A stretch of 64,000 nt of DNA, from contig OY969569.1 of assembly GCA_963701185.1 (NCBI GenBank), forward strand, positions 383,054-447,053. Reading direction: 5' to 3'. Positions within the stretch are counted from its first letter, which is position 1, and each line of letters opens with the position of its first letter. This DNA is from Candidatus Gottesmanbacteria bacterium (GTDB lineage Bacteria; Patescibacteriota; Microgenomatia; UBA10105; UBA927). The notes under the pieces were generated by a model. That model was not told the DNA's origin and searched no databases. It was given only the letters and a program-made list of their open reading frames with translations. Of this stretch, positions 3,869 to 64,000 are shown piece by piece. The position numbers were made by a program, and so were the translations under genes.

Positions 3869-4426
3869 ATGAAAAAAATATTAACGATCATCATGCTCCT
3901 TTTAGCCTTATCTGGCCTCTCAACGGCCAAAGTTTTTGCCACATCTGAGGCTGGTTCTACTGCAACGCTTGCCTATCATGTAGCCTCAGATACAACGAAT
4001 GACACGCGGGTTAGGCGCCTCCGAATGTTTTTGGAATCGTATGATTCGCCGCTTGCCGCTGACGCCGCAACATTCGTCGCTGAAGCTGATAAATATAACC
4101 TCGATTGGAAGCTCGTTGCCGCGATCGCAGGCGTGGAATCCACATTCGGCAAACAGATTCCGACCGGCTCATATAACAGCTGGGGCTGGGGTGTATTTAC
4201 CGGAGCGGCGGACGGCGTCCATTTTAAAGACTGGGCGCAGGGTATCGCTGTGGTTTCCGAAGGGCTGCGCAAAAACTACATAGACCGCGGTGCCCGGGAC
4301 ATCTATGACATGGGCTGGATTTATGCCGCCAACGGTGATTCGTGGGCTTCGCATGTCCGCTACTTTATCGATAAACTGGAAACGTTTCAGCCCACCGAGG
4401 TTGCCCAACTACCGGTCTCCATCTAA
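3869..4426 (+). CDS. secreted protein with glucosaminidase/FlgJ-like domain (paralog 2)
   Basis: Signal peptide MKKILTIIMLLLALSGLSTA. AIAGVESTFGKQ motif. Colinear similarity to 3168..3764. Confidence 0.45.
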   Translation: MKKILTIIMLLLALSGLSTAKVFATSEAGSTATLAYHVASDTTNDTRVRRLRMFLESYDSPLAADAATFVAEADKYNLDWKLVAAIAGVESTFGKQIPTGSYNSWGWGVFTGAADGVHFKDWAQGIAVVSEGLRKNYIDRGARDIYDMGWIYAANGDSWASHVRYFIDKLETFQPTEVAQLPVSI

Positions 4427-15021: not shown

Positions 15022-15593
15022 TCGGGCGAATCTCCCGCATATTATTTTGGGTTGCCGGCCTTACGTGCCTTGCCGGTATTACCATCTTGCTTCTGACATT
15101 TGGTCCGCTTGCTACACAGGAACTCCGGTATACAGCCCATGCAGTTCCGAAAGAGATTGTCCCGATTGATAAAAATTTCGGCATCGTGATCCCACGCTTA
15201 GGCGCCAATGCACGGATTATTGCCAACGTCGATCCGTATGACAGTAAGGCCTACCAGTACGCCCTCACCAAAGGAGTCGCCCATGCCCGCGGCACCAGCG
15301 TACCGGGCGCGATGGGGAACATATTTTTATTCGCCCATTCATCGGAAAATTTTTACGATGCGTTGCGATATAATTCCGTTTTTTATCTTCTCCCGAAACT
15401 CACCGCCGGAGACAAAATTCTTTTGTATTATCACGGCGTGAAGTTTACCTACACGGTAACCGGTAAAAAATTCGTAAGTTCCAAAGATGTTTCTTACCTA
15501 CAAGGAGAGTCCTTGAAGTCGACGCTTACCCTCATGACTTGCTGGCCGCCGGGCACAACCAATCAGCGACTTCTCGTATTTGCATCCCTATGA
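14991..15593 (+). CDS. sortase (transpeptidase) family protein
   Basis: N-terminal TM anchor. Conserved His in FLFAHSS. Catalytic TLMTCWP (TLxTC) and downstream Arg (QRLLV). Sits next to the LPXTG substrate gene. Confidence 0.75.
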   Translation: MARKKKKVRIIGRISRILFWVAGLTCLAGITILLLTFGPLATQELRYTAHAVPKEIVPIDKNFGIVIPRLGANARIIANVDPYDSKAYQYALTKGVAHARGTSVPGAMGNIFLFAHSSENFYDALRYNSVFYLLPKLTAGDKILLYYHGVKFTYTVTGKKFVSSKDVSYLQGESLKSTLTLMTCWPPGTTNQRLLVFASL

Positions 15594-22316: not shown

Positions 22317-24284
22317 ATGAACATACTCATACCTGATTCATGGCTCAGAGAATTTCTTAAAACAAAGGCAACTTCTCAACAGATAAAGGAGTATTTGTCC
22401 CTGTGTGGCCCGTCGGTCGAACGGCTTAGAAGACTGTCTTTGAACAAAGACAGTCTTCAAGGCGAAACAGTTTACGACATCGAAATCACAACCAACCGGC
22501 CCGACGCGATGTCTGTTTTTGGTGTCGCGCGCGAGGCGGCGGCGATTTTACCCCGGTTCGGGATTCCGGCAAAATTCGTCAATGACCCCTATGCCCTACA
22601 AGGACTCTCCTTGAAGGACGAGGAGAGTCCTTCTCGGAGCCTTAAACTTTTTATCAAAACCGACCCGAAGCTTAATCCCCGCTGGACATCTATTATTCTT
22701 TCGGATGTCCGCGTCGCGCCTTCGCCCCTCTGGCTCAAACAAAAACTGGAAGCAACCGGCATCCGCAGCATCAACAACGTGATTGACATCACGAATTATC
22801 TGATGCGCGCCTACGGCCAGCCGGCGCACGCGTTTGATTATGACGAAATTAAGGACTCAACAATGATCCTTCGTGAAAGTAAGAAGGGTGAAAAAATCGT
22901 CACCCTGGACGGAAAGACACACACCCTCGCAGGCGGCGACATCGTGATCGAAGACGGCGCCGGCAGACTCATTGACTTGTGCGGCATCATGGGCGCGCAA
23001 AACTCCAGCATTAAACCCGGAACGTCATCTGTTGTTCTTTTTACCCAAACGTACAATCCCGTCAATATCCGCAAAACCTCCATGGCACTGGCGGCGCGAA
23101 GCGAAGCGTCATCGCTTTTTGAAAAAGGACTCGATAGTGAACTGACACTACCTGCTTTAATCCGCGGAATAGAACTGATGGAAAAACTTACCGGCGCACA
23201 CGCTGCCAGTAAAATGTATGACATCTATCCCAAACCGTACAAACCATATTCAGTTACTGTCTCAAAAGAAAAAACGGCGGGCTATATGGGGACAGAACTC
23301 ACTGATACTGAAATAAAAAAAATACTGGTTCCGCTCGGATTCACGCCGTCTCTCACTAAAAAAGAGATTACCGTCACGGTCCCGAGCTACCGCACGGATG
23401 TGACACTGGACGTGGATGTGATTGAAGAAATCGCCCGGATATACGGATATCACAACATACAGACCACATTGCCGGAAGGCGAGCCGCCGATCGTCATACC
23501 TGATCCGCTCCTTGGATGGGAACACGAAATAAAAATACACCTGCGCGATTGGGGATTTACCGAACTCACTACCTACTCCATGATTTCCGAAAAACTCATG
23601 GGGATATTCGGCCTTGATACCAATAAAGCATATAAAATCACCAATCCGCTTTCGGAGGAATGGCTCTACATGCGGCCAACACTCCTCCCAAGCGCGCTTC
23701 TTGCCGTTGAACAGAACCTGCATTTCAGAAAGGATCTGCAATTATTTGAATTAAGTATGACGTATCAATGGCGTGAGCACGATTTGCCCAAAGAAAAACC
23801 GACACTGGTCGTTGCGTGGACCGGAAACAAACATCGCGAGGCCAAAGGAGTAGGAGAAGCTATCTGTTCGATCCTGGGTGAACGCAATTCGGGCTTCGTT
23901 GAAGAAGTTAAACCTGATCTTCTGTCAAAAATGAATATCCATACGCCGGTGACGACATTGACTCTCGATATTGCCGATCTTGTTACCCACGCAACACGGA
24001 ATAAAAAATATGTTCCGATTTCTAAATATCCTCCGATCGTCGAAGATTTATCGTTCATCGTTCCGCAGGGATTCCAGGTCGGTCCGCTTATTGACGTTCT
24101 GTCGCGGGTTCACAAACTTATCGAGTCCATCGTTTTCTTAGACGCCTATGAAAACAAACGGACGTTCCGTGTCACGTACAATGACCCGACAAAAAACCTG
24201 ACCGGCATGGATATCGCACCCATCCGTCAAAAACTCATCGAATACGCCGGAGAAAAATTCGGGGCCTCCGTGGTCACCGCTTAA
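22317..24284 (+). CDS. pheT: phenylalanyl-tRNA synthetase beta subunit (short form lacking N-terminal tRNA-binding domain)
   Basis: B3/4 and B5 domains, then an FDYDEI-containing core. 655 aa. Carries an in-frame REP hairpin at 22429-22458. Confidence 0.85.
   Translation: MNILIPDSWLREFLKTKATSQQIKEYLSLCGPSVERLRRLSLNKDSLQGETVYDIEITTNRPDAMSVFGVAREAAAILPRFGIPAKFVNDPYALQGLSLKDEESPSRSLKLFIKTDPKLNPRWTSIILSDVRVAPSPLWLKQKLEATGIRSINNVIDITNYLMRAYGQPAHAFDYDEIKDSTMILRESKKGEKIVTLDGKTHTLAGGDIVIEDGAGRLIDLCGIMGAQNSSIKPGTSSVVLFTQTYNPVNIRKTSMALAARSEASSLFEKGLDSELTLPALIRGIELMEKLTGAHAASKMYDIYPKPYKPYSVTVSKEKTAGYMGTELTDTEIKKILVPLGFTPSLTKKEITVTVPSYRTDVTLDVDVIEEIARIYGYHNIQTTLPEGEPPIVIPDPLLGWEHEIKIHLRDWGFTELTTYSMISEKLMGIFGLDTNKAYKITNPLSEEWLYMRPTLLPSALLAVEQNLHFRKDLQLFELSMTYQWREHDLPKEKPTLVVAWTGNKHREAKGVGEAICSILGERNSGFVEEVKPDLLSKMNIHTPVTTLTLDIADLVTHATRNKKYVPISKYPPIVEDLSFIVPQGFQVGPLIDVLSRVHKLIESIVFLDAYENKRTFRVTYNDPTKNLTGMDIAPIRQKLIEYAGEKFGASVVTA
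22429..22458. repeat. REP-like hairpin copy 3 (gaagactgtctttgaacaaagacagtcttc), in frame inside pheT
   Basis: 26/30 nt identical to copy 1. It encodes RLSLNKDSLQ in pheT without breaking the frame. Confidence 0.85.
22600..22632. repeat. 12-bp perfect inverted repeat (aaggactctcct ... aggagagtcctt) with 9-nt loop inside pheT
   Basis: Read directly. Shares the caagga/gagagtcct motif seen at 15498 and 55818. Confidence 0.6.
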
Positions 24285-35984: not shown

Positions 35985-36012
35985 TGTTTTAATGTTTTAA
36001 AACATTAAAACA
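35985..36012. repeat. 28-bp perfect palindrome copy A (tgttttaatgttttaaaacattaaaaca)
   Basis: Read directly. Intergenic between tyrS and recG. Confidence 0.9.
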
Positions 36013-36053: not shown

Positions 36054-37991
36054 ATGGAACTTACGCTTGAAAGCCCGGTCCGGTACGTGCCGCACATCGG
36101 GCCGGTGATGGCAACCAGACTTATTAATCTCGATATTTTTACCGTTCGGGATCTTCTGTACCACGTGCCTTTCCGCTACGACGATTTTTCCGTTGTTCTG
36201 CCGATTTCAGCCGTCCGGCCGGGGGAAACAGTCACCGTCAACGGGACGATCCAAACGATCAAAAATTTCTTTACCAAAACCGGCAAAAAAATACAGGAAG
36301 CAAAAGTGACGGACGCCTCCGGGACGCTGACCGTCATCTGGTTTAACCAGATGTATTTATTGAAAATTCTTCATCCCGGCGACGAACTTCACCTGTCCGG
36401 AAAAATCGACTGGTTCGGAAGTAGAATCGTCATGAGCAATCCTTCGTATGAGCAGGGGACGTCGCTCCATACTGGGCGGCTGGTTCCGGTCTATCCAGAA
36501 ACGGCAGGGGTGTCTTCCAAATGGCTCCGAAGCCGGATCGCTTTCCTTCTGGAAACTATTACTGTTGTCGATTTTCTTCCCGACGCCATCCTGAATGAAT
36601 ATCATTTGATGCCGCTTCCGGATGCTGTTTCCGCGGTCCATTTTCCCGACAATAAAGAGGATATCGAGCGCGGCCGGCACCGGATCGCATTTGATGAAGT
36701 CTTTCTATTACAACTTCGAGCGTATGAACAGAAACGCGTATGGAAGGAAACACAAAAAGCAAAAATCATTACTCCTGTCAACATTCCCACCATTCCTTTT
36801 ATGTTAACCCGTGATCAGAATCGCGCGATCGCGGAAATTCTTGGTGACCTCAAACAACCCATCCCGATGAACCGCATACTCGTCGGCGACGTGGGAAGCG
36901 GGAAAACCGTTGTCGCGGCAACTGCCATGTATGCCGCGTATAAAAGCAAACTGATGTCGCTTCTTATGGCCCCGACACAAATTTTGGCCGAGCAGCACTT
37001 TCAAACCATTTCGCAGCTGCTTTCGCCGTACGGTATTCGGGTTGGACTTGTGACCGGAAACACAAAAACCGAGGGCGATATTCTCGTGGGCACGCATGCG
37101 CTCCTCACACACCCATACAAAAATGTCGGCCTTGTTGTCATCGACGAACAGCACAGATTTGGGGTTGAACAAAGAGCTCAACTCGTAGGCAGCAAAAAAA
37201 TCACGCCGCATTTTCTTACGATGACGGCAACACCTATACCAAGAACAATCGCAAAGACTTTATTGGGAAATATGGACGTATCCGTTCTGAATGAAATGCC
37301 CAAAGGCCGCCGCACCGTTAAAACCTGGATTGTGCCGCCAACCAAACGGACAGCGGCGTACGATTGGATCAGGAAGCAGCCGGGCCAGGTTTTTATCATC
37401 TGTCCTCTGATTGAAGCATCCGATACACTCACGGAGGTGAAGGCCGTCAAAGAAGAATACGAAAAAATAAAAAAGATTTTTTCGGCTGTTGGCCTCCTGC
37501 ACGGAAGAATGGCCGCCGCGGAAAAAACACGGGTATTGGATAACTTCCGTAAGAAAAAAATCATGGTTCTTGTGGCAACTCCCGTCGTTGAAGTCGGCAT
37601 TGATATTCCCAATGCAACCATCATGGTTATCGAAGGAGCTGACCGGTTCGGGCTGGGACAGCTGCATCAACTCCGCGGCCGCGTGGGGCGGGGGGACCAG
37701 CAATCCTATTGTTTACTCTTTACCCAAACAGATGACGAAAAAACGCTTATCCGCCTCAAATCCCTCGAAACGATTCACAACGGACCGGATCTGGCCGACG
37801 TGGATTTGAAGCTACGGGGCCCGGGTGAAGTCTTCGGTACCCGGCAACACGGCATGCCGCACTTTAAGATTGCCTCCTTCACCGATATGGCGACCATGAA
37901 TGAAGCGCAGGAGGTACTTCATCATCTGCCACCTGCCCTCTTGAGGACGCTCGCCAAAACAGCTATAATAGACAATGTCAGTAAAGACTAA
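36054..37991 (+). CDS. recG: ATP-dependent DNA helicase RecG
   Basis: Wedge domain, Walker A GDVGSGKT, DEQHRFGV box, and the C-terminal TRG motif region. Confidence 0.9.
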   Translation: MELTLESPVRYVPHIGPVMATRLINLDIFTVRDLLYHVPFRYDDFSVVLPISAVRPGETVTVNGTIQTIKNFFTKTGKKIQEAKVTDASGTLTVIWFNQMYLLKILHPGDELHLSGKIDWFGSRIVMSNPSYEQGTSLHTGRLVPVYPETAGVSSKWLRSRIAFLLETITVVDFLPDAILNEYHLMPLPDAVSAVHFPDNKEDIERGRHRIAFDEVFLLQLRAYEQKRVWKETQKAKIITPVNIPTIPFMLTRDQNRAIAEILGDLKQPIPMNRILVGDVGSGKTVVAATAMYAAYKSKLMSLLMAPTQILAEQHFQTISQLLSPYGIRVGLVTGNTKTEGDILVGTHALLTHPYKNVGLVVIDEQHRFGVEQRAQLVGSKKITPHFLTMTATPIPRTIAKTLLGNMDVSVLNEMPKGRRTVKTWIVPPTKRTAAYDWIRKQPGQVFIICPLIEASDTLTEVKAVKEEYEKIKKIFSAVGLLHGRMAAAEKTRVLDNFRKKKIMVLVATPVVEVGIDIPNATIMVIEGADRFGLGQLHQLRGRVGRGDQQSYCLLFTQTDDEKTLIRLKSLETIHNGPDLADVDLKLRGPGEVFGTRQHGMPHFKIASFTDMATMNEAQEVLHHLPPALLRTLAKTAIIDNVSKD

Positions 37992-42694: not shown

Positions 42695-43513
42695 TTATTG
42701 GGAAAACGATCCCTCACTATATACTGCATAATCAAAAAGAGATGCCGGGGCGCGATATTGCTTATAGGCAACTATTTTTCTGTTTACATCGCTTCCGGAC
42801 GTACCGGTAGATTCGATTCTGCTTCCCTGCTCCGGAAGAACCTGCGCGGGGGCGACAGCGATACGTGCTCCGCTATACACCGGCCGGATGCGAAGTGCGA
42901 TGAGCGTATCAGACGCAGGAGTGATTCCCAAATCAGAAAATGTCATCGTGGCGGAATATGCGGTATTTGTGGTGCAGCCGCCGGCCGCCGCCGCGGAAAA
43001 ATTATTTGACCGGGAATCCGGATCATATGCTGCTTTGGCTACCTGGTATGATCCGCCGAATTTACGGTAAAGAATGGAAACAGCGACAGCAGGATTCGGC
43101 GATTCGCTGCTCCAACATACGCCTATCGTATTTACCGTATATGTAGGCGTCTCTACGATGAGACCGGTCGATGGATCATGATTCACCAACCATACGGTTT
43201 CGGTGTCCTGTTTTAATGTTTTTTGAGGAAACTCGAACGGACTGGCGCTCCCGCCCACGGGGGTAACCGCCACGTTATATTTCACCCCTAACGCCGAATC
43301 GAGCGTATCTGCACTCGCAATACCTGATTTAAGACCTTCTTCGATTCCTGCTTCCGCCGCGGAAAATGCTCGGCTTGACTCTTCTACATTCCGGGTCACG
43401 GAAACATCGGTCGTTGACCTGGCAATAAGTGACAATCCCACGGTCGTTGCCACCATCAACACCAAAAGGGAAATAAGTGCTATTTGACCTGATTGTTTGT
43501 TCTTTCGAACCAT
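42695..43513 (-). CDS. PilX-like minor pilin / pilus assembly protein (PilX_N-type N-terminus)
   Basis: KQSGQIALISLLVLMVATTVGL hydrophobic N-terminus. 272 aa. Confidence 0.45.
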   Translation of the reverse strand: MVRKNKQSGQIALISLLVLMVATTVGLSLIARSTTDVSVTRNVEESSRAFSAAEAGIEEGLKSGIASADTLDSALGVKYNVAVTPVGGSASPFEFPQKTLKQDTETVWLVNHDPSTGLIVETPTYTVNTIGVCWSSESPNPAVAVSILYRKFGGSYQVAKAAYDPDSRSNNFSAAAAGGCTTNTAYSATMTFSDLGITPASDTLIALRIRPVYSGARIAVAPAQVLPEQGSRIESTGTSGSDVNRKIVAYKQYRAPASLFDYAVYSEGSFSQ

Positions 43514-55223: not shown

Positions 55224-55838
55224 ATGCATGCTTTCCTTCTTGTTGGCAATAATCCTCAAGAAGAACTGGAATCCCGTGTTGCCGCATGGAAAATTTCTCC
55301 ATGGGACATACACCGGCCAGGAGGCGCAGGCATTGCGGATATCCGCGCGTTGTGCCGCGACCTGTCTCTCGCCCCGCGCGGCTACGAGCACGTAGGCATT
55401 ATCGAACACATGGAGCTTCTGACTCCTGAAGCGCAAAATGCGCTTTTAAAAACACTCGAAGAGCCCCCGCCGCATACATATATTATAGGGACCACTCACA
55501 TGCCAGAGGCGCTCTTGCCCACCGTCCGGTCACGGATGACTATTATTACAGTAAAAAATACTATCAAAAAGTCAGATGCAACAAGTCTATTAAAATTATT
55601 ACAGGAGTCTGCAGGGCAACGCCTCTCAACGCTTGAACCGTTTGTTGCCACGCGCGACGATGCGAAAATTTTTGTCACCGCGCTTCTTGATGCAACCCAT
55701 GAAGAACTTCTCACACATCCATCACCGCGCCTTACCAAACTCATCCGAAATCTCCTCGCCGCCCAGTCCCAACTCGCGGTCAACGTCAATCCGCGGCTGG
55801 TTGTCGACAACGCAGTACTACAAGGAGAGTCCTCGTAG
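55224..55838 (+). CDS. holB: DNA polymerase III delta-prime subunit-like (short AAA+ lid-only form)
   Basis: LLKTLEEPP and RSR sensor motif. 204 aa. Its stop overlaps a short hairpin and is 4 nt from palindrome copy B. Confidence 0.6.
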   Translation: MHAFLLVGNNPQEELESRVAAWKISPWDIHRPGGAGIADIRALCRDLSLAPRGYEHVGIIEHMELLTPEAQNALLKTLEEPPPHTYIIGTTHMPEALLPTVRSRMTIITVKNTIKKSDATSLLKLLQESAGQRLSTLEPFVATRDDAKIFVTALLDATHEELLTHPSPRLTKLIRNLLAAQSQLAVNVNPRLVVDNAVLQGESS

Positions 55839-55841
55839 TCC

Positions 55842-55869
55842 TGTTTTAATGTTTTAAAACATTAAAACA
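55842..55869. repeat. 28-bp perfect palindrome copy B
   Basis: tgttttaatgttttaaaacattaaaaca read directly. Preceded by tcctcgtagtcc. Confidence 0.9.
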
Positions 55870-55941
55870 AAGTTCACCAATCCACCCGGAGGGTGTATTG
55901 TCTAATTGTGTTACACTAAAGTATAGGAGGTACGTAGTACT

Positions 55942-56463
55942 ATGGCAGAATTTCCAATCAAAGATTTACCAATCGGTCCGAACCCCGGTCAACAAAACAT
56001 GGATAAAGTTGTTGCTAGTATAAATGATATGGTAAGAACAAAAATGGGAGCCTTGCCGGACACAGGACCAGCAGGTAGACATTTTCTTGATGGCGAGCAC
56101 AGTTTCTTTGGCTATAACGGCGTTGTTGTCCGTGAAGGGAAAATTGTATCATTGGTAAATCTCAATGGGGATGAGGATATTCCGCCTATCAATTTGGATA
56201 CGGAAATCACGATAGAAGGAGATTCGCGAGGGTATGTCAGTTCCGGGCATAAGCCTGGGGATAGAGTAAAAGTTATAGGATTTATTGAGCCCAATTTTAA
56301 AGCGGCAGAAGGCATACGGTCTTCCGACAAAATAATACAAGTGGAGGGGGCTGGAACAGTCGGATGGATAAAACCATCAGAATTTGACAAACAACTTCTC
56401 AAAAAACAACAGGAAGAAGAGATTGGGAAATTGTTTAATCCACCTAAACAGGAAGAGGGTTAG
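55942..56463 (+). CDS. hypothetical protein (173 aa), AT-rich cassette ORF between palindrome copies B and C
   Basis: Intact ORF with no TM and no recognised motif. Compositionally AT-rich versus its flanks. Confidence 0.5.
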   Translation: MAEFPIKDLPIGPNPGQQNMDKVVASINDMVRTKMGALPDTGPAGRHFLDGEHSFFGYNGVVVREGKIVSLVNLNGDEDIPPINLDTEITIEGDSRGYVSSGHKPGDRVKVIGFIEPNFKAAEGIRSSDKIIQVEGAGTVGWIKPSEFDKQLLKKQQEEEIGKLFNPPKQEEG

Positions 56464-56549
56464 GTTCCTTTATTTTCTAGCACCAGCACCGCCAGGAGCT
56501 AAAACCCCGGAAAAAACTTTTGATTTTTGTTCATTAAATATTTTCATAA

Positions 56550-56572
56550 CCTACGAGGATACTCCTCGTAGG
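56550..56572. repeat. hairpin cctacgagga-tac-tcctcgtagg (10-bp stem) abutting palindrome copy C
   Basis: Read directly. An imperfect homolog (ctacaagga-gag-tcctcgtag) sits at 55818-55838 before copy B. Confidence 0.7.
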
Positions 56573-56574
56573 CC

Positions 56575-56602
56575 TGTTTTAATGTTTTAAAACATTAAAA
56601 CA
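56575..56602. repeat. 28-bp perfect palindrome copy C
   Basis: Identical to copies A, B and D. Confidence 0.9.
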
Positions 56603-56624
56603 AACGTTATGATATATTTAGCGC

Positions 56625-56897
56625 ATGACAGAGCGAAAAGACATATATTTAGATAATTTTGAACAGCTTTGTCCATTAGTGAAAATAGGATGGATGCCGC
56701 TCTATCCTACGGGAAGTAATCCGCAAAATATAAATATCTTACTGACAAAGGAATTTCCTGAATTTCAGGATAAAGAAACTGAGGGCGCTGCTGCGGATGC
56801 CGTAGCTATGACGTGCTCCGATTGTGAGTATGCACATTCAAACCCCCTAACAAACACAGTATGTTTTTCTAATCAAGGAGTTCCGGAAATAGTGTAA
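56625..56897 (+). CDS. hypothetical small Cys-containing protein (90 aa)
   Basis: AT-rich ORF. Four Cys (C16, C64, C67, C80) could form a Zn site. Confidence 0.4.
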   Translation: MTERKDIYLDNFEQLCPLVKIGWMPLYPTGSNPQNINILLTKEFPEFQDKETEGAAADAVAMTCSDCEYAHSNPLTNTVCFSNQGVPEIV

Positions 56898-56993
56898 CAG
56901 CAGTTATATATGTATCTGTTAAAGGAATTGAAGTGTAAGAAATTTGATTCGTTTGCCTAGACAACCATCCTCAAGTATTGTACAATGATTTAG

Positions 56994-58946
<1,953 letters not shown>

Positions 58947-59032
58947 TATGAGCTAGCTGACACGTCCGTGGCATCGGGGCAAAAAATGCAACATTGGATA
59001 TATAATGGTTGAAATTATTTGAAAGGAGTTCT

Positions 59033-61045
59033 ATGAATCTTATAACACTATCACTTATTGCCGGCGCTGCATCTGTCCTGTACGGTTTATTTTTGGCGGC
59101 GAAAATTATTAAACTTCCGACGGGCACACCCGACATGAATGCCATCGCCGATGCCATAGCAGAAGGCGCGCAGGCATTCCTCAGGCGGCAATATACAACG
59201 ATCGGACTTCTTTCGGTTGCCATTATTATCCTTTTATACGTTGCCCTTGGCATGTATTCCGCCGTCGCGTTCGCAATTGGTGCGCTGTTGAGCGCCACTG
59301 CGGGATTTATCGGCATGAATATCTCCGTCCGGGCAAATATCCGTACGGCAGAAGCCGCTAAAACCGGACTGGCCGAGGCTCTCGGCGTGGCATTTTCCGG
59401 CGGATCCGTCACCGGACTCATGGTCGCGGGTCTCGCGCTTCTTTCCGTTGCCATAACCTATCTTGTGATCGGCCGCGGCGCTGCGTCCGGCTTTGACCTT
59501 AAACCGCTCGTGGCTCTCGGGTTCGGCGGATCGCTCATTTCAGTATTTGCACGTCTCGGGGGCGGCATTTACACCAAAGGCGCGGATGTCGGTACGGATA
59601 TGGTCGGAAAAATCGAAAAAGGCATTCCTGAGGATGATCCGAGAAACCCCGGCGTAATTGCGGATCTGGTCGGCGATAATGTCGGCGATGATGCCGGCAT
59701 GGCCGCGGATTTATTTGAAACGTACGTTGTCACGGCTGTCGCTGCGATCCTGTTGGGGCATCTCTTATTACCCGGATTTACAAACGCGCTTTTCTTCCCC
59801 ATGGCGGTCGGAGCGGCGGGCATTGTCGCTTCCATTGTAGGAACCTGGTTCGTGACGCTCGGGAAAAATAAAAAAATAATGCCTGCGCTCTATAAAGGGC
59901 TTCTCACTGCGGCATTAGTATCTGCCGTTCTTTTTTATATGATCACGAATGTGCTCATGACCGGCAACGGCCTTTATTCAAACATGAATTTGTTTCTTGC
60001 GAGCCTTATCGGCATCATGGTTACGATCGGGATGGTCGCCATAACCGAGTTTTATACGTCGAAAGCCTATGGCTCCGTCAAACATCTGGCCGAAGCCAGC
60101 ACGACGGGACACGGAACCAATATCATCGCAGGACTCGCGCTTTCCATGAAATCAACCCTGCCGGCGGTACTTCTTATCGCGGCGGCAATGCTTGGCGCAT
60201 ATGCCCTTGCCGATCTCTACGGCATTGCCGTGGCAGCTATGGCCATGATATCGCTCACAGGCATTGTGGTTGCGATTGACGCATTCGGTCCGATTACGGA
60301 TAACGCAGGCGGCATTGCGGAAATGACCAACCAGCCTGAAAAAGTGCGTGCCATCACGGATGCACTGGACGCCGTGGGCAATACGACCAAAGCAGTGACA
60401 AAATCCTACGCCATCGCATCGGCAGGACTAGCTGCACTCGTCCTGTTTGCCTCCTACACGCAGGAACTCACAGGGGCAAATGCAGGACTGACGTTCAGCC
60501 TGTCTGATCCCAATGTCGTCGTAGGACTTCTCATCGGTGCCTCCCTGCCGTATGTCTTCGGTGCGCTTGCCATGGAAGCCGTCGGAAAGGCAGCCGGAGC
60601 CATTGTCGTTGAAGTACGCAGACAATTTAAAACATTGAAAGGGATTATGACGGGAAAACAAAAACCAGAATACGGACGTGCGGTTGATATTGTTACGACT
60701 GCCGCCCTTCATGAAATGATTGTGCCTGCACTTCTTCCTGTTGCGGCACCAATTGCGGTCGGATTTTTGTTGGGACCGTCCGCGCTCGGAGGGCTGCTCA
60801 TGGGAACCATTGTCACGGGCTTGTTTGTCGCCCTCTCGATGACAACCGGCGGAGCGGCCTGGGATAACGCGAAAAAGTATATTGAGGAAGGGCATCTGGG
60901 CGGCAAAGGTTCACCGGCTCATCAGGCAGCAGTCACCGGAGATACGGTCGGAGATCCGTACAAAGATACAGCGGGGCCTGCCATTAATCCCATGATTAAG
61001 GTCGCCAATATCGTTGCATTGCTCATTGCCGGGTTTTTACGATAA
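59033..61045 (+). CDS. hppA: membrane-bound proton-translocating pyrophosphatase (likely K+-independent, GNTTK)
   Basis: [19 protein letters not shown] and [15 protein letters not shown] motifs. 16 TM. ATG at 59033 with a gaaaggag RBS. Confidence 0.85.
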
Positions 61046-61049
61046 AGAT

Positions 61050-63566
61050 ATGAACATCGGGAAAGTTAACCAATCGGAAATTACGCATGAAATGCAGAAG
61101 TCGTATCTGGACTATGCAATGAGCGTCATCGTGGCGCGTGCCCTTCCGGACGTGCGTGACGGCATGAAACCCGTCCATCGGCGCATTCTTTTCGCCATGC
61201 ACCAGACGGGGCTTCACCACACGAGCAAATACAAAAAAAGCGCGTCGGTCGTGGGAGAAGTACTCGGAAAATATCATCCGCACGGAGACGCACCCGTCTA
61301 TGAAGCAATGGTACGCCTCGCACAGGAATTTTCCATGCGGTACCGGCTCATCGACGGTCAGGGTAATTACGGCTCCATTGACGGCGACCCTCCTGCCGCC
61401 ATGCGGTACACCGAGTGTCGGCTGGCTGCAATTTCCGATGAAATGCTTCTGGATATTGAAAAGGAAACGGTGGAGTTTACCCCGAATTTTGACGGATCGA
61501 TCAATGAACCCGTGTATCTCCCTGCAAAACTGCCGAACCTGCTCCTGATGGGCAGCGAGGGCATTGCCGTGGGCATGGCGACCAAAATCCCGCCGCACAA
61601 TCTCACGGAGGTAGCTTCAGCCATCGCGGCGCTCATCGACACGGTCAAGCTGACGAAGAAAAAGGCAACCGAGGGAGTAAGCGAGATAAAAACAGATACG
61701 CAGTTTTCATTCGATATCACGACTGACCAGCTCATGGAACACATCCAGGGGCCGGATTTCCCGACTGCGGGCGCCATTTATGACATTAATGAGATTAAGC
61801 TGGCCTACACGACAGGCCGCGGCAAAATCGTCATGCGGGGCAAGGCTGAAATAGAGGATATCGGTCAGGGAAAAAGCGCCATCGCCATTACGGAACTTCC
61901 GTACCAGGTGAATAAAGCAGTGCTGGTCGCCAGAATCGCCGAGCTTGTGCGGGAGAAAAAACTTGACGGCATTTCGGACCTCCGCGATGAGTCCGACCGC
62001 CGCGGCATCCGCGTGTACGTCGAACTCAAGCGCGATGCCCGGCCCAAACAGGTCCTCAACAATCTCTATAAATACACGGCGCTTCAGACCACATTTCCGG
62101 TTAATATGGTCGCACTCGTTGATAATACACCGCAGACCTGCTCCCTTAAGCTTATTTTGGAAGAATACGTCAAACACCGCCATGACATCGTGCGCCGCCG
62201 CAGTGTTTTTGAACTGAAGGAAGCCCGCGCCCGCGAACACATTCTGGAGGGCCTCAAAATTGCCGTCGACCACATCGACGAGGTCATCTCCATTATTAAA
62301 AAAAGCAAAGACGCCGATGAAGCAAAGGTCAAATTGATGAGCAAATTCAAGCTCTCCGATATCCAGACCACTGCAATTTTGGATATGCAGCTGCGGCGCC
62401 TCGCGGCCCTCGAACGGCAAAAAATCGAAGACGAACTGGCGATGATCCGGGAAACCATCAGCTACCTCGAGGACCTTTTGGCCCACCCGCAAAAAATATT
62501 AAAAGTCGTCAAGGACGAGCTTAATAAATTAAAAGAAAAATACGGTGATCAGCGAAAAACCCGCGTATTTAAGAGTAAAGTCGGCGAGTTTTCCGAAGAA
62601 CAGCTGATTGCCAATGAGGATGTCATTATCACGATGAGCGAGTCCGGGTATATCAAGAGACTCCCGCGCGGCACGTTTAAAATGCAGGAGCGAGGCGGCA
62701 AAGGCGTCATCGGCATGACGACCAAAGAAGAAGATACGATTGATAAAATCCTCACCGCACAAACCCACGACAACATGCTCTTTTTTACCGACCGCGGACG
62801 GGTATACCAGGTGCGTGTGTGGGATATCCCTGAGACCAGCCGGCAAGCCAAAGGCCAGGCGGTCGTCAACCTCATCAATATCGAATCGGGAGAAAAAGTG
62901 ACATCCGTACTTACCTACAGTTTGAAGCGCGATGAGCAGAAAGAATCCGGCGTCAAATTTATTCTCATGGCGACCAAACACGGCACCATCAAAAAATCAA
63001 AGTTGACGGAATACGAAAATATCCGCCGCAGCGGCCTGGTAGCAATTAAATTAGAAAAGGATGATGAACTGACCTGGGCCCGCGTAACCGGCGGGGCAGA
63101 CGATATTCTTCTCGTGTCTCACGAGGGTAAATCCATCAGGTTTGTTGAAACAGAAGTCCGGCCGACGGCCCGCGATACCATGGGGGTACGCGGAATACTT
63201 TTGAAAGGCTCCGACTTCGTCGTGAGCGTGGACGTCATCAATGACGAAACGAAGAAAGCGGATTTTCTCACGATTATGGAAAAGGGAATCGGTAAAAAAA
63301 CAGCGATCAAGGATTTTCCCCGCCAGAGGCGGGGCGGGCAGGGCGTGAAAGTCGCCGAGGTCAAAGACCGGACCGGCAAGGTCGTCGTCTCTCAAATTGT
63401 TCCCGCCGACACCGACAGCGTGATTTTGACATCCATGAAAGGCCAGGTCGTCAAGCTTCCGATTAACTCCGTGCCCCGCCTCGGCCGCGCAACGTCGGGA
63501 GTGATCTTAATGCGCTTCGCCGACAAAAGTGATACGATAGCCGCCGCCACGTGTTTGACGAAATAA
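61050..63566 (+). CDS. gyrA: DNA gyrase subunit A
   Basis: Catalytic-Tyr region AAMRYTE and C-terminal beta-pinwheel repeats. Start at ATG 61050, just after the hppA stop. Confidence 0.9.
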
Positions 63567-63569
63567 ACT

Positions 63570-63839
63570 ATGGAAATAAAAGAACTTGGTACACCTCCAT
63601 ACAAAGTAAGCAATGGGTACATACCGGATCTTCATGCCGGCAACGAACAATTTTCAACAGCGCCAGATTTCTTACACGCTTTAGATATTCTTAGGGATAT
63701 TAGTGAAAATGGAGAAGATAAAAAACCGTATGTCATTGATGCAAAAAACCAAAAAGTAGTTGATTTAACTAGTGACAATGGCGTGCAATTACTCAATAAT
63801 TTCATTACTGAATTGCAAAAAGGAAATATTCATATTTAA
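63570..63839 (+). CDS. hypothetical protein (89 aa), AT-rich, followed by palindrome copy D
   Basis: ORF with no known motif. 12 nt upstream of copy D. Confidence 0.4.
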   Translation: MEIKELGTPPYKVSNGYIPDLHAGNEQFSTAPDFLHALDILRDISENGEDKKPYVIDAKNQKVVDLTSDNGVQLLNNFITELQKGNIHI

Positions 63840-63851
63840 TCTCTTAAACGT

Positions 63852-63879
63852 TGTTTTAATGTTTTAAAACATTAAAACA
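63852..63879. repeat. 28-bp perfect palindrome copy D
   Basis: Identical 28-mer. Confidence 0.9.
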
Positions 63880-64000
63880 TGGAGCCATGGATTGTTTTTG
63901 ACCATTCTTTTTCCGACAATAGACCGCGCAATAATCCTTCCAAATTATCAAAAAACTTCACCCACTTTTCTTCCTTTCCTATGTACTTCAGAGCACGTCT

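Follow-up and report, generated by a model that had tools for sequence, protein, structure and literature searches.

The question raised by the interval between holB and gyrB in a Candidatus Gottesmanbacteria genome is what its repeats are for. In an AT-rich stretch between these two genes, an open reading frame (ORF) of 173 amino acids, here called ORF173, has the same composite module on either side, consisting of a hairpin (HP) followed by a 28-bp palindrome (PAL). An earlier note had read this layout as a gene cassette or miniature mobile element inserted between two essential genes, with the modules as its ends and a second ORF of 90 amino acids (ORF90) as the partner of ORF173. That interpretation is partly supported by this study. 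The modules and the insertion are there, but PAL, rather than being a mobile-element end, is most likely the predicted 28-bp operator of a TrpR/YerC-like regulator whose gene lies past gyrA, 7 kb downstream. Positions refer to the window, the whole stretch of 64,000 nucleotides that was analysed (contig OY969569.1, 383,054 to 447,053); loci from other contigs carry L numbers and proteins P numbers.

A palindrome that brackets a regulator gene

A repeat search of the 64-kb window found a 54-nt direct repeat with 93% identity at 55818-55871 and 56551-56604, which bears out the description of the same hairpin and palindrome on either side of the 173-amino acid ORF. Each copy is made up of HP (CTACAAGGAgagTCCTCGTAG or CTACGAGGAtacTCCTCGTAG), 3 nt, and the perfect palindrome TGTTTTAATGTTTTAAAACATTAAAACA; the hairpin of the second copy can also be read as CTACGAGGA-tac-TCCTCGTAG. 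The two PAL copies are 733 bp apart. When folded as RNA, each module copy forms two adjacent hairpins (z-scores -4.5 and -8.0), PAL being predicted to form a 12-bp hairpin, and no Rfam match was found in 55700-57100 at E up to 1. The interval was also rightly described as AT-rich, with a GC fraction of 0.35-0.42 across 55850-57050 and 0.46-0.58 in the flanks. The exact PAL 28-mer occurs four times in the window (35985, 55842, 56575, and 63852), where 0 copies were expected from 100 shuffles, and the copies at 35985 and 63852 lie outside the proposed cassette and were not mentioned in the earlier note. An exact half-PAL (TGTTTTAATGTTTT), preceded by CC as in the modules, is found at 43209-43222 inside a minus-strand coding sequence (42695-43513) and may be a remnant.

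A scan of metagenome contigs with the 24-nt core of PAL returned 23 contigs with unrelated flanks. In four of them, two copies of PAL stand 440-480 bp apart and enclose one gene; the same bracketing is seen in L025, where the palindrome is a symmetric variant with a double change (TTTCAATG...CATTGAAA), and in L024, where the second copy is degenerate. The enclosed gene matches the Pfam family Trp_repressor (PF01371) with E values of 1e-11 to 1e-13, and the scores in L014, L022, L027, and L024 are 44-51 bits against a gathering cutoff of 27. The regulator of the window's own genome (P0030), which has a precomputed PF01371 match, is encoded on the same 995-kb contig as ORF173. Its gene runs off the right end of the window, the remainder and the upstream PAL lying just past it. 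The short-read contig L032 from the same strain is 100% identical to window positions 58617-64000, completes the gene (product of 136 amino acids), and ends within the second PAL, 8 nt 5' of the regulator start codon. The right end of the window has syntenic counterparts in L022 and L027, where the order is gyrA, a small ORF, PAL, and the convergent regulator gene.

Seven bracketed loci were found by means of PAL (L014, L022, L027, L029, L024, L025, and L032, the last from the window's own strain). A profile built from seven regulator sequences recovered 983 relatives in public data; named entries carry the label "Trp family transcriptional regulator" or "YerC" and belong to Gottesmanbacteria, Azambacteria, and other Patescibacteria. 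Since loci found through PAL are subject to ascertainment bias, four more were chosen from these relatives blind to it (L038, L039, L040, and L041, long contigs at different identity levels), which removes that bias. The regulator gene is bracketed by two 28-bp palindromes at 11 of 11 loci, including all four of those picked blind. The palindrome is exact PAL in L038, TGTATTAATGTATTAATACATTAATACA in L041, TGTACCAGTGTATTAATACACTGGTACA in L039, and TGTTATCATGTATTAATACATCGATACA in L040, and all variants fit the common frame TGT-N5-TGT-N-TTAA-N-ACA-N5-ACA. The palindrome sequence thus co-varies with regulator lineage while the architecture is kept, as expected for a cognate operator, and PAL itself is conserved among genomes whose regulators share only 27-50% identity.

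The palindromes also have regular positions at the 11 loci. Between the end of the upstream palindrome and the start codon there are -1 to 20 nt (mostly 2-10), and -10-like hexamers (TATAAT, TATGAT, TAGTAT, TATTCT, and TACATT) are found 0-5 nt 5' of it; a site just after a -10 box would imply autorepression. The downstream palindrome begins -7 to +21 nt relative to the stop codon and is retained whether the next gene is a tRNA gene (L014, L038, and L041) or convergent gyrA (the window, L022, L027, and L039). As it is kept whatever follows, it belongs to the regulator unit itself, where it could possibly act as a loop anchor, a roadblock, or a terminator.

The TGT/ACA half-sites of PAL, with their 8-bp spacing, are reminiscent of tandem TrpR binding. 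Like TrpR-family repressors such as TrpR of E. coli and HisR of Firmicutes, the regulator is a small helix-turn-helix (HTH) protein with PF01371, its palindromic site is lineage-specific, and the site lies at its own promoter, implying autoregulation. TrpR-family proteins (TrpR and HisR, the latter being YerC) bind palindromes of about 20 bp with a lineage-specific consensus (PMC9413887). Both dimensions differ here: the regulators have 128-147 amino acids with a C-terminal extension, while TrpR and HisR have fewer than about 100 (PMC9413887), and the site has 28 bp. Two further differences are that a second copy always follows the stop codon, so that the gene is bracketed, and that the neighbours are not amino-acid biosynthesis genes. 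No description of this bracketing was found in the literature searched on TrpR-like palindromes of Candidate Phyla Radiation (CPR) bacteria, and the architecture appears to be undescribed across CPR bacteria in searchable literature. In L038 (4723-5181), the gene of a shorter TrpR-like paralog (118 amino acids) is followed directly 3' by a different palindrome of 26 nt, GTATTAACATGTTAACACGTTAATAC.

The copy number of PAL is low in the stretches covered. In L038-L041, the surroundings of the regulator gene have 2-3 PAL-type sites per 20 kb; together with the four copies in the window and the 23 metagenome contigs, this would fit a regulon better than a selfish repeat. A scan for the 28-mer in a genome collection that left out the window's own genome returned only one Shapirobacteria contig. 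PAL is found 8 nt before uvrA (L028), 41 nt before recG (36054-37991 in the window), 45 nt before Sua5 (L019), and also before tRNA genes. Its neighbours otherwise include Sua5/TsaE, FolD, NusA, EamA, aldehyde dehydrogenase, and an S1 protein. An SOS-like regulon was considered because PAL precedes uvrA and recG, and was dropped because these other neighbours do not fit. In L041, a PAL-type palindrome (TGTTACTATGTTTTAGAACATAGTAACA, 943-970) lies 6 nt before an EamA-family transporter gene, and in L027, at 4001-4108, PAL lies between an EamA gene and the regulator gene, which are divergent; EamA may be a conserved target of the regulator.

The interval between holB and gyrB

The features of the interval and the remaining PAL copies are listed in Table 1. 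The last seven codons and the TAG stop of holB lie within the first HP, the stop being the last triplet of the hairpin. In the close relative L020, the holB stop codon is 23 nt 5' of the hairpin, and relative to L020 the window has a 23-nt deletion that fuses holB with HP.

Table 1. Features of the window discussed in the text (positions in the 64-kb window; a dot marks features given without strand)
Feature	Position	Strand	Description
PAL copy	35985..36012	.	41 nt upstream of recG
holB (DNA polymerase III delta-prime-like)	55224..55838	+	Pfam DNA_pol3_delta2, E 2.7e-19
HP copy 1	55818..55838	+	CTACAAGGA-gag-TCCTCGTAG; 9-bp stem with one A.C mismatch
PAL copy 1	55842..55869	.	Perfect 28-bp palindrome; position after holB kept in L020
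Box CCACCCGGAGGGTGTA	55882..55897	+	Small hairpin, conserved junction motif; flagged as terminator-like
ORF173 (173 aa)	55942..56463	+	Accessory protein; predicted N-terminal helix, SH3-like beta barrels, C-terminal helix
HP copy 2	56550..56572	+	CCTACGAGGA-tac-TCCTCGTAGG; perfect 10-bp stem, then T-rich PAL arm; terminator-like site for ORF173
PAL copy 2	56575..56602	.	Centre TTTAAA is the -35-like hexamer of the ORF90 promoter-like site
ORF90 (probably ~104 aa)	56625..56938	+	Cys-rich; reads as 90 aa ending at 56897
gyrB promoter-like site	56958..56986	+	TAGACA-17-TACAAT; conserved in L020 and L033
gyrB	57021..58946	+	In four pieces; three 1-nt frame changes at ~57212, ~57730, and ~58616
ORF89	63570..63839	+	AT-rich orphan gene; second variable slot, from gyrA to PAL
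PAL copy	63852..63879	.	3' end of regulator gene; regulator stop codon within PAL
TrpR/YerC-like regulator gene, 3' end (42 codons)	63872..64000	-	Remainder carried by L032; relatives match PF01371

Sequences of the HP family are dispersed, with four in the window (15498, 22596, 55818, and 56551), two in L011 flanking a PAL, and others in L020, L028, and L030. They are usually placed directly 3' of a stop codon. The second HP of the module pair was scored as terminator-like, having a stem of 10 pairs with six G-C and the tail CCTGTTTTAA, in line with the G+C-containing stem and T-rich run of an intrinsic terminator; the first HP, with its A.C mismatch, was not scored as a terminator in the same prediction. 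A G-C pair in the second HP is A-T in L020, a compensatory change that argues for selection on the stem. HP with the T-rich arm of PAL looks like an intrinsic terminator in sequence. HP is also found within coding sequences. The HP-like hairpin CTACAAGGAGAGTCCTTGAAG at 15498-15518 lies within a sortase-like coding sequence, just 5' of a TLxTC-type motif, where it encodes LQGESLK and resembles the holB C-terminus LQGESS.

The claim of an insertion between two essential genes held up when relatives were compared. The distant syntenic relative L039 has the same gene order as the window, with pilB/pilT divergent from holB-gyrB-pyrophosphatase-gyrA and then the regulator, but its holB and gyrB are only about 23 nt apart and nothing separates gyrA from the regulator palindrome. 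In L020, holB is followed by HP and PAL, a 17-nt box (CCACCCGGAGGGTGTAT), an ORF of 199 amino acids (ORF199), a second box, an ORF90 homolog, ORF319, and gyrB. ORF199 takes the place of ORF173 and is unrelated to it, and no second PAL is found beside it. In L033 and L034, the order is box, ORF90 homolog, a Y1 transposase-like gene with its own palindromes, and gyrB with an intein. Here the box runs directly into the upstream region of ORF90, from which it follows that the slot of ORF173 or ORF199 is empty. Variable genes begin directly 3' of the box; in L020 it stands before ORF199 and ORF90 and, as a degenerate copy, before ORF319, and in L033 before ORF90. As judged from these comparisons, 55839-57020 is a lineage-specific and variable insertion between holB and gyrB that carries two independent single-gene units, ORF173 and ORF90. 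The slot between gyrA and the regulator holds unrelated ORFs in L022 (3038-3373) and L027 (4569-4868) and none in L039. Both junctions are small hot spots with different orphan genes in close relatives.

Two occupants of these loci have features of their own. ORF319 (L020 667-1626, minus strand, between ORF90 and gyrB) has flanking direct repeats agacaaccctcgtgaaa and weak matches to PRTase-CE (Pfam) and PRTase_III-A (PADLOC), both of which are linked to conflict systems. The gyrB gene of L033 (1230-4079) has its intein at GDSAGG/C...HN/S, while gyrB of the window has none.

As the earlier note had it, neither ORF173 nor ORF90 contains a known motif, with no match in Pfam, NCBIfam, PHROGs, or PADLOC for either protein. 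ORF173 has 22 homologs with 44-73% identity, which occur in six different neighbourhoods in six other genomes, and co-occurrence of ORF173 with the palindrome, one of the checks named in the earlier note, was not observed there, since the homologs at these six loci have neither PAL nor HP. The ORF173 homolog in L035 shares about 45 nt upstream of the start codon with the window copy, so the gene travels with its own control region; by this evidence ORF173 behaves as a floating accessory gene. Its structure model is confident (predicted local distance difference test, pLDDT, 88.6; predicted template modelling score, pTM, 0.80), and the hits of structure searches were all of a generic kind (SH3, Tudor, KOW, and PsaE).

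Sixty-three relatives of ORF173 were recovered when 1.84 billion representatives were searched with a profile. Several are larger proteins that carry the core (residues ~50-150) as their N-terminal domain, and three of the larger proteins have a TIR domain at the other end. For one of the three, a Chryseolinea serpens protein (WP_178377141), the TIR part gave a PADLOC match to ThsB1 (1.7e-38), and ORF173 aligns with the N-terminus of this protein with an hhalign probability of 98.7%. The core of ORF173 is thus, by profile alignment, homologous to the N-terminal, non-TIR domain of the Thoeris ThsB-like proteins P0159, P0167, and P0178. Unlike these, ORF173 has neither the middle domain nor a TIR domain or other effector domain, and there is no ThsA-like partner nearby. 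One ORF173 homolog (L006 3313-5507) lies 180 nt downstream of a CD-NTase and Cap15 (CBASS-like) pair. The homology with TIR proteins and this neighbour lend indirect support to a possible role of the domain in phage sensing or conflict.

For ORF90, just two homologs turned up in the databases, each from a close relative and at the same type of locus, and its AlphaFold model was unusable (pLDDT 51). It reads as 90 amino acids in the window, as first reported, but this length is the result of truncation: compared with L020 and L033, the window copy has a 1-nt deletion at ~56888-56890 (CCGGAAA-TAGTG), the +1 frame restores the conserved C-terminus SVTAVIYVSVKGIEV* up to 56938, and the relatives encode 104 amino acids. 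The four cysteines pointed out in the earlier note (Cys16, Cys64, Cys67, and Cys80) are invariant in three relatives. A promoter-like site for ORF90, TTTAAA-16-TATGAT, is found at 56586-56613; L020 and L033 have no PAL there, yet in both the -10 hexamer is conserved along with the 20 nt that lead up to the ATG.

The frameshifts in gyrB had been suggested as possible collateral damage from the insertion, but they are probably not biological. The three gyrB events and that in ORF90 fall within 1.75 kb, while the neighbouring genes for pilB, pilT, pyrophosphatase, gyrA, and pilins are intact. The independent short-read contig L032 begins exactly at 58617, directly after the third gyrB event, and a broken gyrB is implausible in a 1-Mb genome. 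These points together argue that the gyrB and ORF90 frameshifts are probably sequence or assembly errors and not damage, in a poorly resolved stretch of the assembly, perhaps owing to strain differences at a hot spot. Neither the gyrB "pseudogene" nor the 90-amino acid length of ORF90 in the assembly should be trusted for annotation. Suspected frameshifts at 44.1-46.7 kb were dismissed because they proved to be separate pilin genes.

Alternative readings of the repeats

If PAL is an operator of the regulator, then several observations are not what would be expected. The genes next to PAL are functionally mixed and no coherent regulon emerges from them; several PALs are in places where two genes converge and a promoter would not be expected (L001, L010, L011, and window 63852); and all copies in the window are exact, whereas most regulons have degenerate sites. 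There is no -10-like hexamer 5' of the first PAL, and the ORF173 start codon is 72 nt away from it. The TrpR-like gene in L004, which belongs to another subfamily, has no such palindrome, and the 54-nt direct repeat around ORF173 could be the scar of an insertion event. The mixed neighbours, the convergent sites, and the exact copies keep alive a structural reading of PAL and, for HP, a reading as a selfish repeat.

In the structural reading, PAL bound by the TrpR-like protein would be a sequence-specific roadblock, a bidirectional terminator, or a chromosome-organising site comparable to parS or matS, and the bracketed genes would be insulated. The retention of the downstream palindrome before both tRNA genes and convergent gyrA is consistent with this, as are the sites between convergent genes, the exactness of the copies, the 12-bp hairpin that PAL RNA would form, and the presence of several copies near the replication genes holB, gyrB, gyrA, dnaB, and recG. 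However, the PAL stem is AU-rich and has no U tail of its own, and at the regulator gene and uvrA, where only 2-10 nt separate PAL from the start codon, a terminator would block expression. There is also no DnaA-box cluster or clear origin signal. This reading shares its protein and its site with the operator reading and differs only in the outcome of binding; we consider it unlikely. A replication origin was considered separately, because a shallow minimum of the cumulative GC skew lies near 56 kb and the box resembles a DnaA box, and was dropped when no cluster of DnaA boxes was found.

A second alternative is that ORF173 is a gene cassette moved by site-specific recombination, PAL (with or without HP) being an attC-like or Xer/dif-type site that was left on each side on integration. 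As with integron attC and pdif sites, a short ORF lies between repeated palindromic sites and the content of the slot differs among relatives; the variable slot between gyrA and the regulator adjoins PAL as well, and in L020 short direct repeats of local sequence stand on both sides of ORF199 and of ORF319. The dif site has an 11-6-11 layout, with 11-bp arms for XerC and XerD around a 6-bp spacer, and the 28 bp of PAL can be parsed by eye in the same way. In this parse, the arms are identical inverted copies. The perfect symmetry of PAL, spacer included, speaks against such a site, since it leaves PAL without polarity. The attC sites of integrons are imperfect palindromes 57-141 bp long with R''/R' cores, and cassette ORFs have no promoter; PAL, in contrast, is perfect over its 28 bp, lacking both extrahelical bases and a GTTRRRY core, and ORF173 brings its own upstream region.

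The genetic context also speaks against recombination. No integrase or Xer gene was found within ~8 kb in the window or L032, nor consistently in L038-L041, and neither IntI nor attI was found over this distance, the genes present being pilT, pilB, holB, gyrB, pyrophosphatase, gyrA, and the regulator; the sole integrase seen is of housekeeping type and 4 kb off in L039. What PAL tracks, and always brackets, is the gene of an HTH regulator and not that of a recombinase, while the homologs of ORF173 elsewhere lack PAL and its alternative occupant in L020 lacks a second one. The earlier note had named sister genomes with the same ORFs and no repeat modules as an outcome that would speak against a cassette, and half of this was seen: ORF90 and the holB-proximal module are kept, but ORF173 and the second module are not. 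A phage or plasmid origin was rejected, because the interval has no DNA match in phage records, ORF173 has no protein match in plasmid records, and PAL was not found in viral contigs. The modules are thus quite improbable as cassette or mobile-element ends.

The third alternative is that HP and PAL are selfish repeats, such as repetitive extragenic palindromes (REPs), REPINs, or miniature inverted-repeat transposable elements, mobilised by a Y1 transposase of the REP-associated tyrosine transposase (RAYT) type, and that their position around ORF173 is incidental. Such transposase genes do occur. In the window, region 83-802 has a classic REP/RAYT layout, in which two copies of a palindrome (AAGACTGTCTTT-N4-AAAGACAGTCTT), at 83-110 and 773-800, closely enclose the minus-strand gene of a RAYT-like Y1 transposase (110-754); this palindrome of 28-32 nt has a third copy at 22430, and the Y1 gene with its own palindromes in L033 (451-1131) is directly upstream of gyrB. 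The dispersal of HP, its position 3' of stop codons and even within coding sequences, and the GTAG that it contains also fit this reading, as does the identity of all PAL copies. As in REP/RAYT systems, a palindrome that is scattered through intergenic DNA also stands in two copies close on either side of a gene.

PAL nevertheless differs from such repeats in several ways. The protein that it flanks is an HTH regulator without a catalytic HUH/Y1 domain, whereas both Y1-like genes are flanked by palindromes other than PAL or HP. REPs usually differ between species, but PAL, besides being low in copy number in the stretches covered, is conserved across distant genomes with regulators that are 27-50% identical and changes in step with the regulator. 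As an account of both elements, the selfish-repeat reading seems rather improbable; for HP alone it is plausible, and more so than for PAL.

The third copy of the RAYT-associated palindrome (22427-22460) is in frame within a pheT-like coding sequence (22317-24284), to which it adds about 12 residues (RRLSLNKDSLQG), and an HP-like hairpin lies inside the same coding sequence at 22596-22616, 140 nt beyond it; palindromic elements seem to be tolerated inside this essential gene.

Finally, that ORF173 and ORF90 form a toxin-antitoxin or two-gene defence module is very improbable: they are small adjacent genes of no known function in an AT-rich insertion, one with a core homologous to a TIR-protein domain and with a homolog beside a CD-NTase/Cap15 pair, but six other genomes have ORF173 and no ORF90, L020 and L033 have ORF90 and no ORF173, the two genes are set apart by a terminator-like hairpin and a distinct promoter-like site, and neither protein matches the defence and domain databases searched or, in the case of ORF173, contains an effector domain. 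The earlier suggestion of such a pair therefore fails for want of co-inheritance, and only its defence-like part survives, indirectly, for ORF173 alone.

Proposed control of the enclosed genes

The reading that we regard as probable, though well short of certain, is that the module combines a terminator-like hairpin with a TrpR/YerC-like operator, that ORF173 is enclosed in the same manner as the regulator gene, that the promoter of ORF90 overlaps the second operator, and that the whole interval is a recent variable insertion. HP with the T-rich PAL arm would act as a terminator 3' of genes. At its own gene, the regulator on PAL would cover the transcription start and shut off its own expression. 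We infer that the same regulator binds both PALs around ORF173 and can repress from them. On the second copy, which overlaps the -35 region of ORF90, it would repress ORF90. The pair encloses ORF173 at 733 bp much as the regulator's own gene is enclosed at 440-480 bp, and paired sites could allow a repression loop or could insulate ORF173 from transcription of holB and gyrB. The repeats and where they occur, their linkage to and co-variation with the regulator gene, and the variability of the locus are observed; binding, repression, and looping are inferences.

Two-operator loops are known from lac (O1/O2), gal (OE/OI), and deo. The arrangement around ORF173 and the regulator gene is similar to these in that identical putative operators flank a promoter or gene and are spaced so that looping would be feasible, but different in that they enclose an entire coding region, at 440-730 bp. 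A more speculative extension, to which we give little credence, is a "gene cage" in which the TrpR-like protein bridges the PAL pair and loops out the enclosed gene. In this way the regulator would adjust its own level, and it would also silence or insulate genes, possibly related to phage defence, that have newly arrived between essential genes. If true, the regulator would be a tamer of foreign DNA specific to CPR bacteria; carried one step further, the idea would make positions next to PAL preferred landing sites for such genes.

To our knowledge, almost nothing is known about transcriptional control in CPR bacteria (Patescibacteria), most of which cannot be cultured. The pairing of one regulator family, with about a thousand members in public data, and one 28-bp double palindrome is concrete and testable, and it is a possible entry point to the regulons of CPR bacteria.

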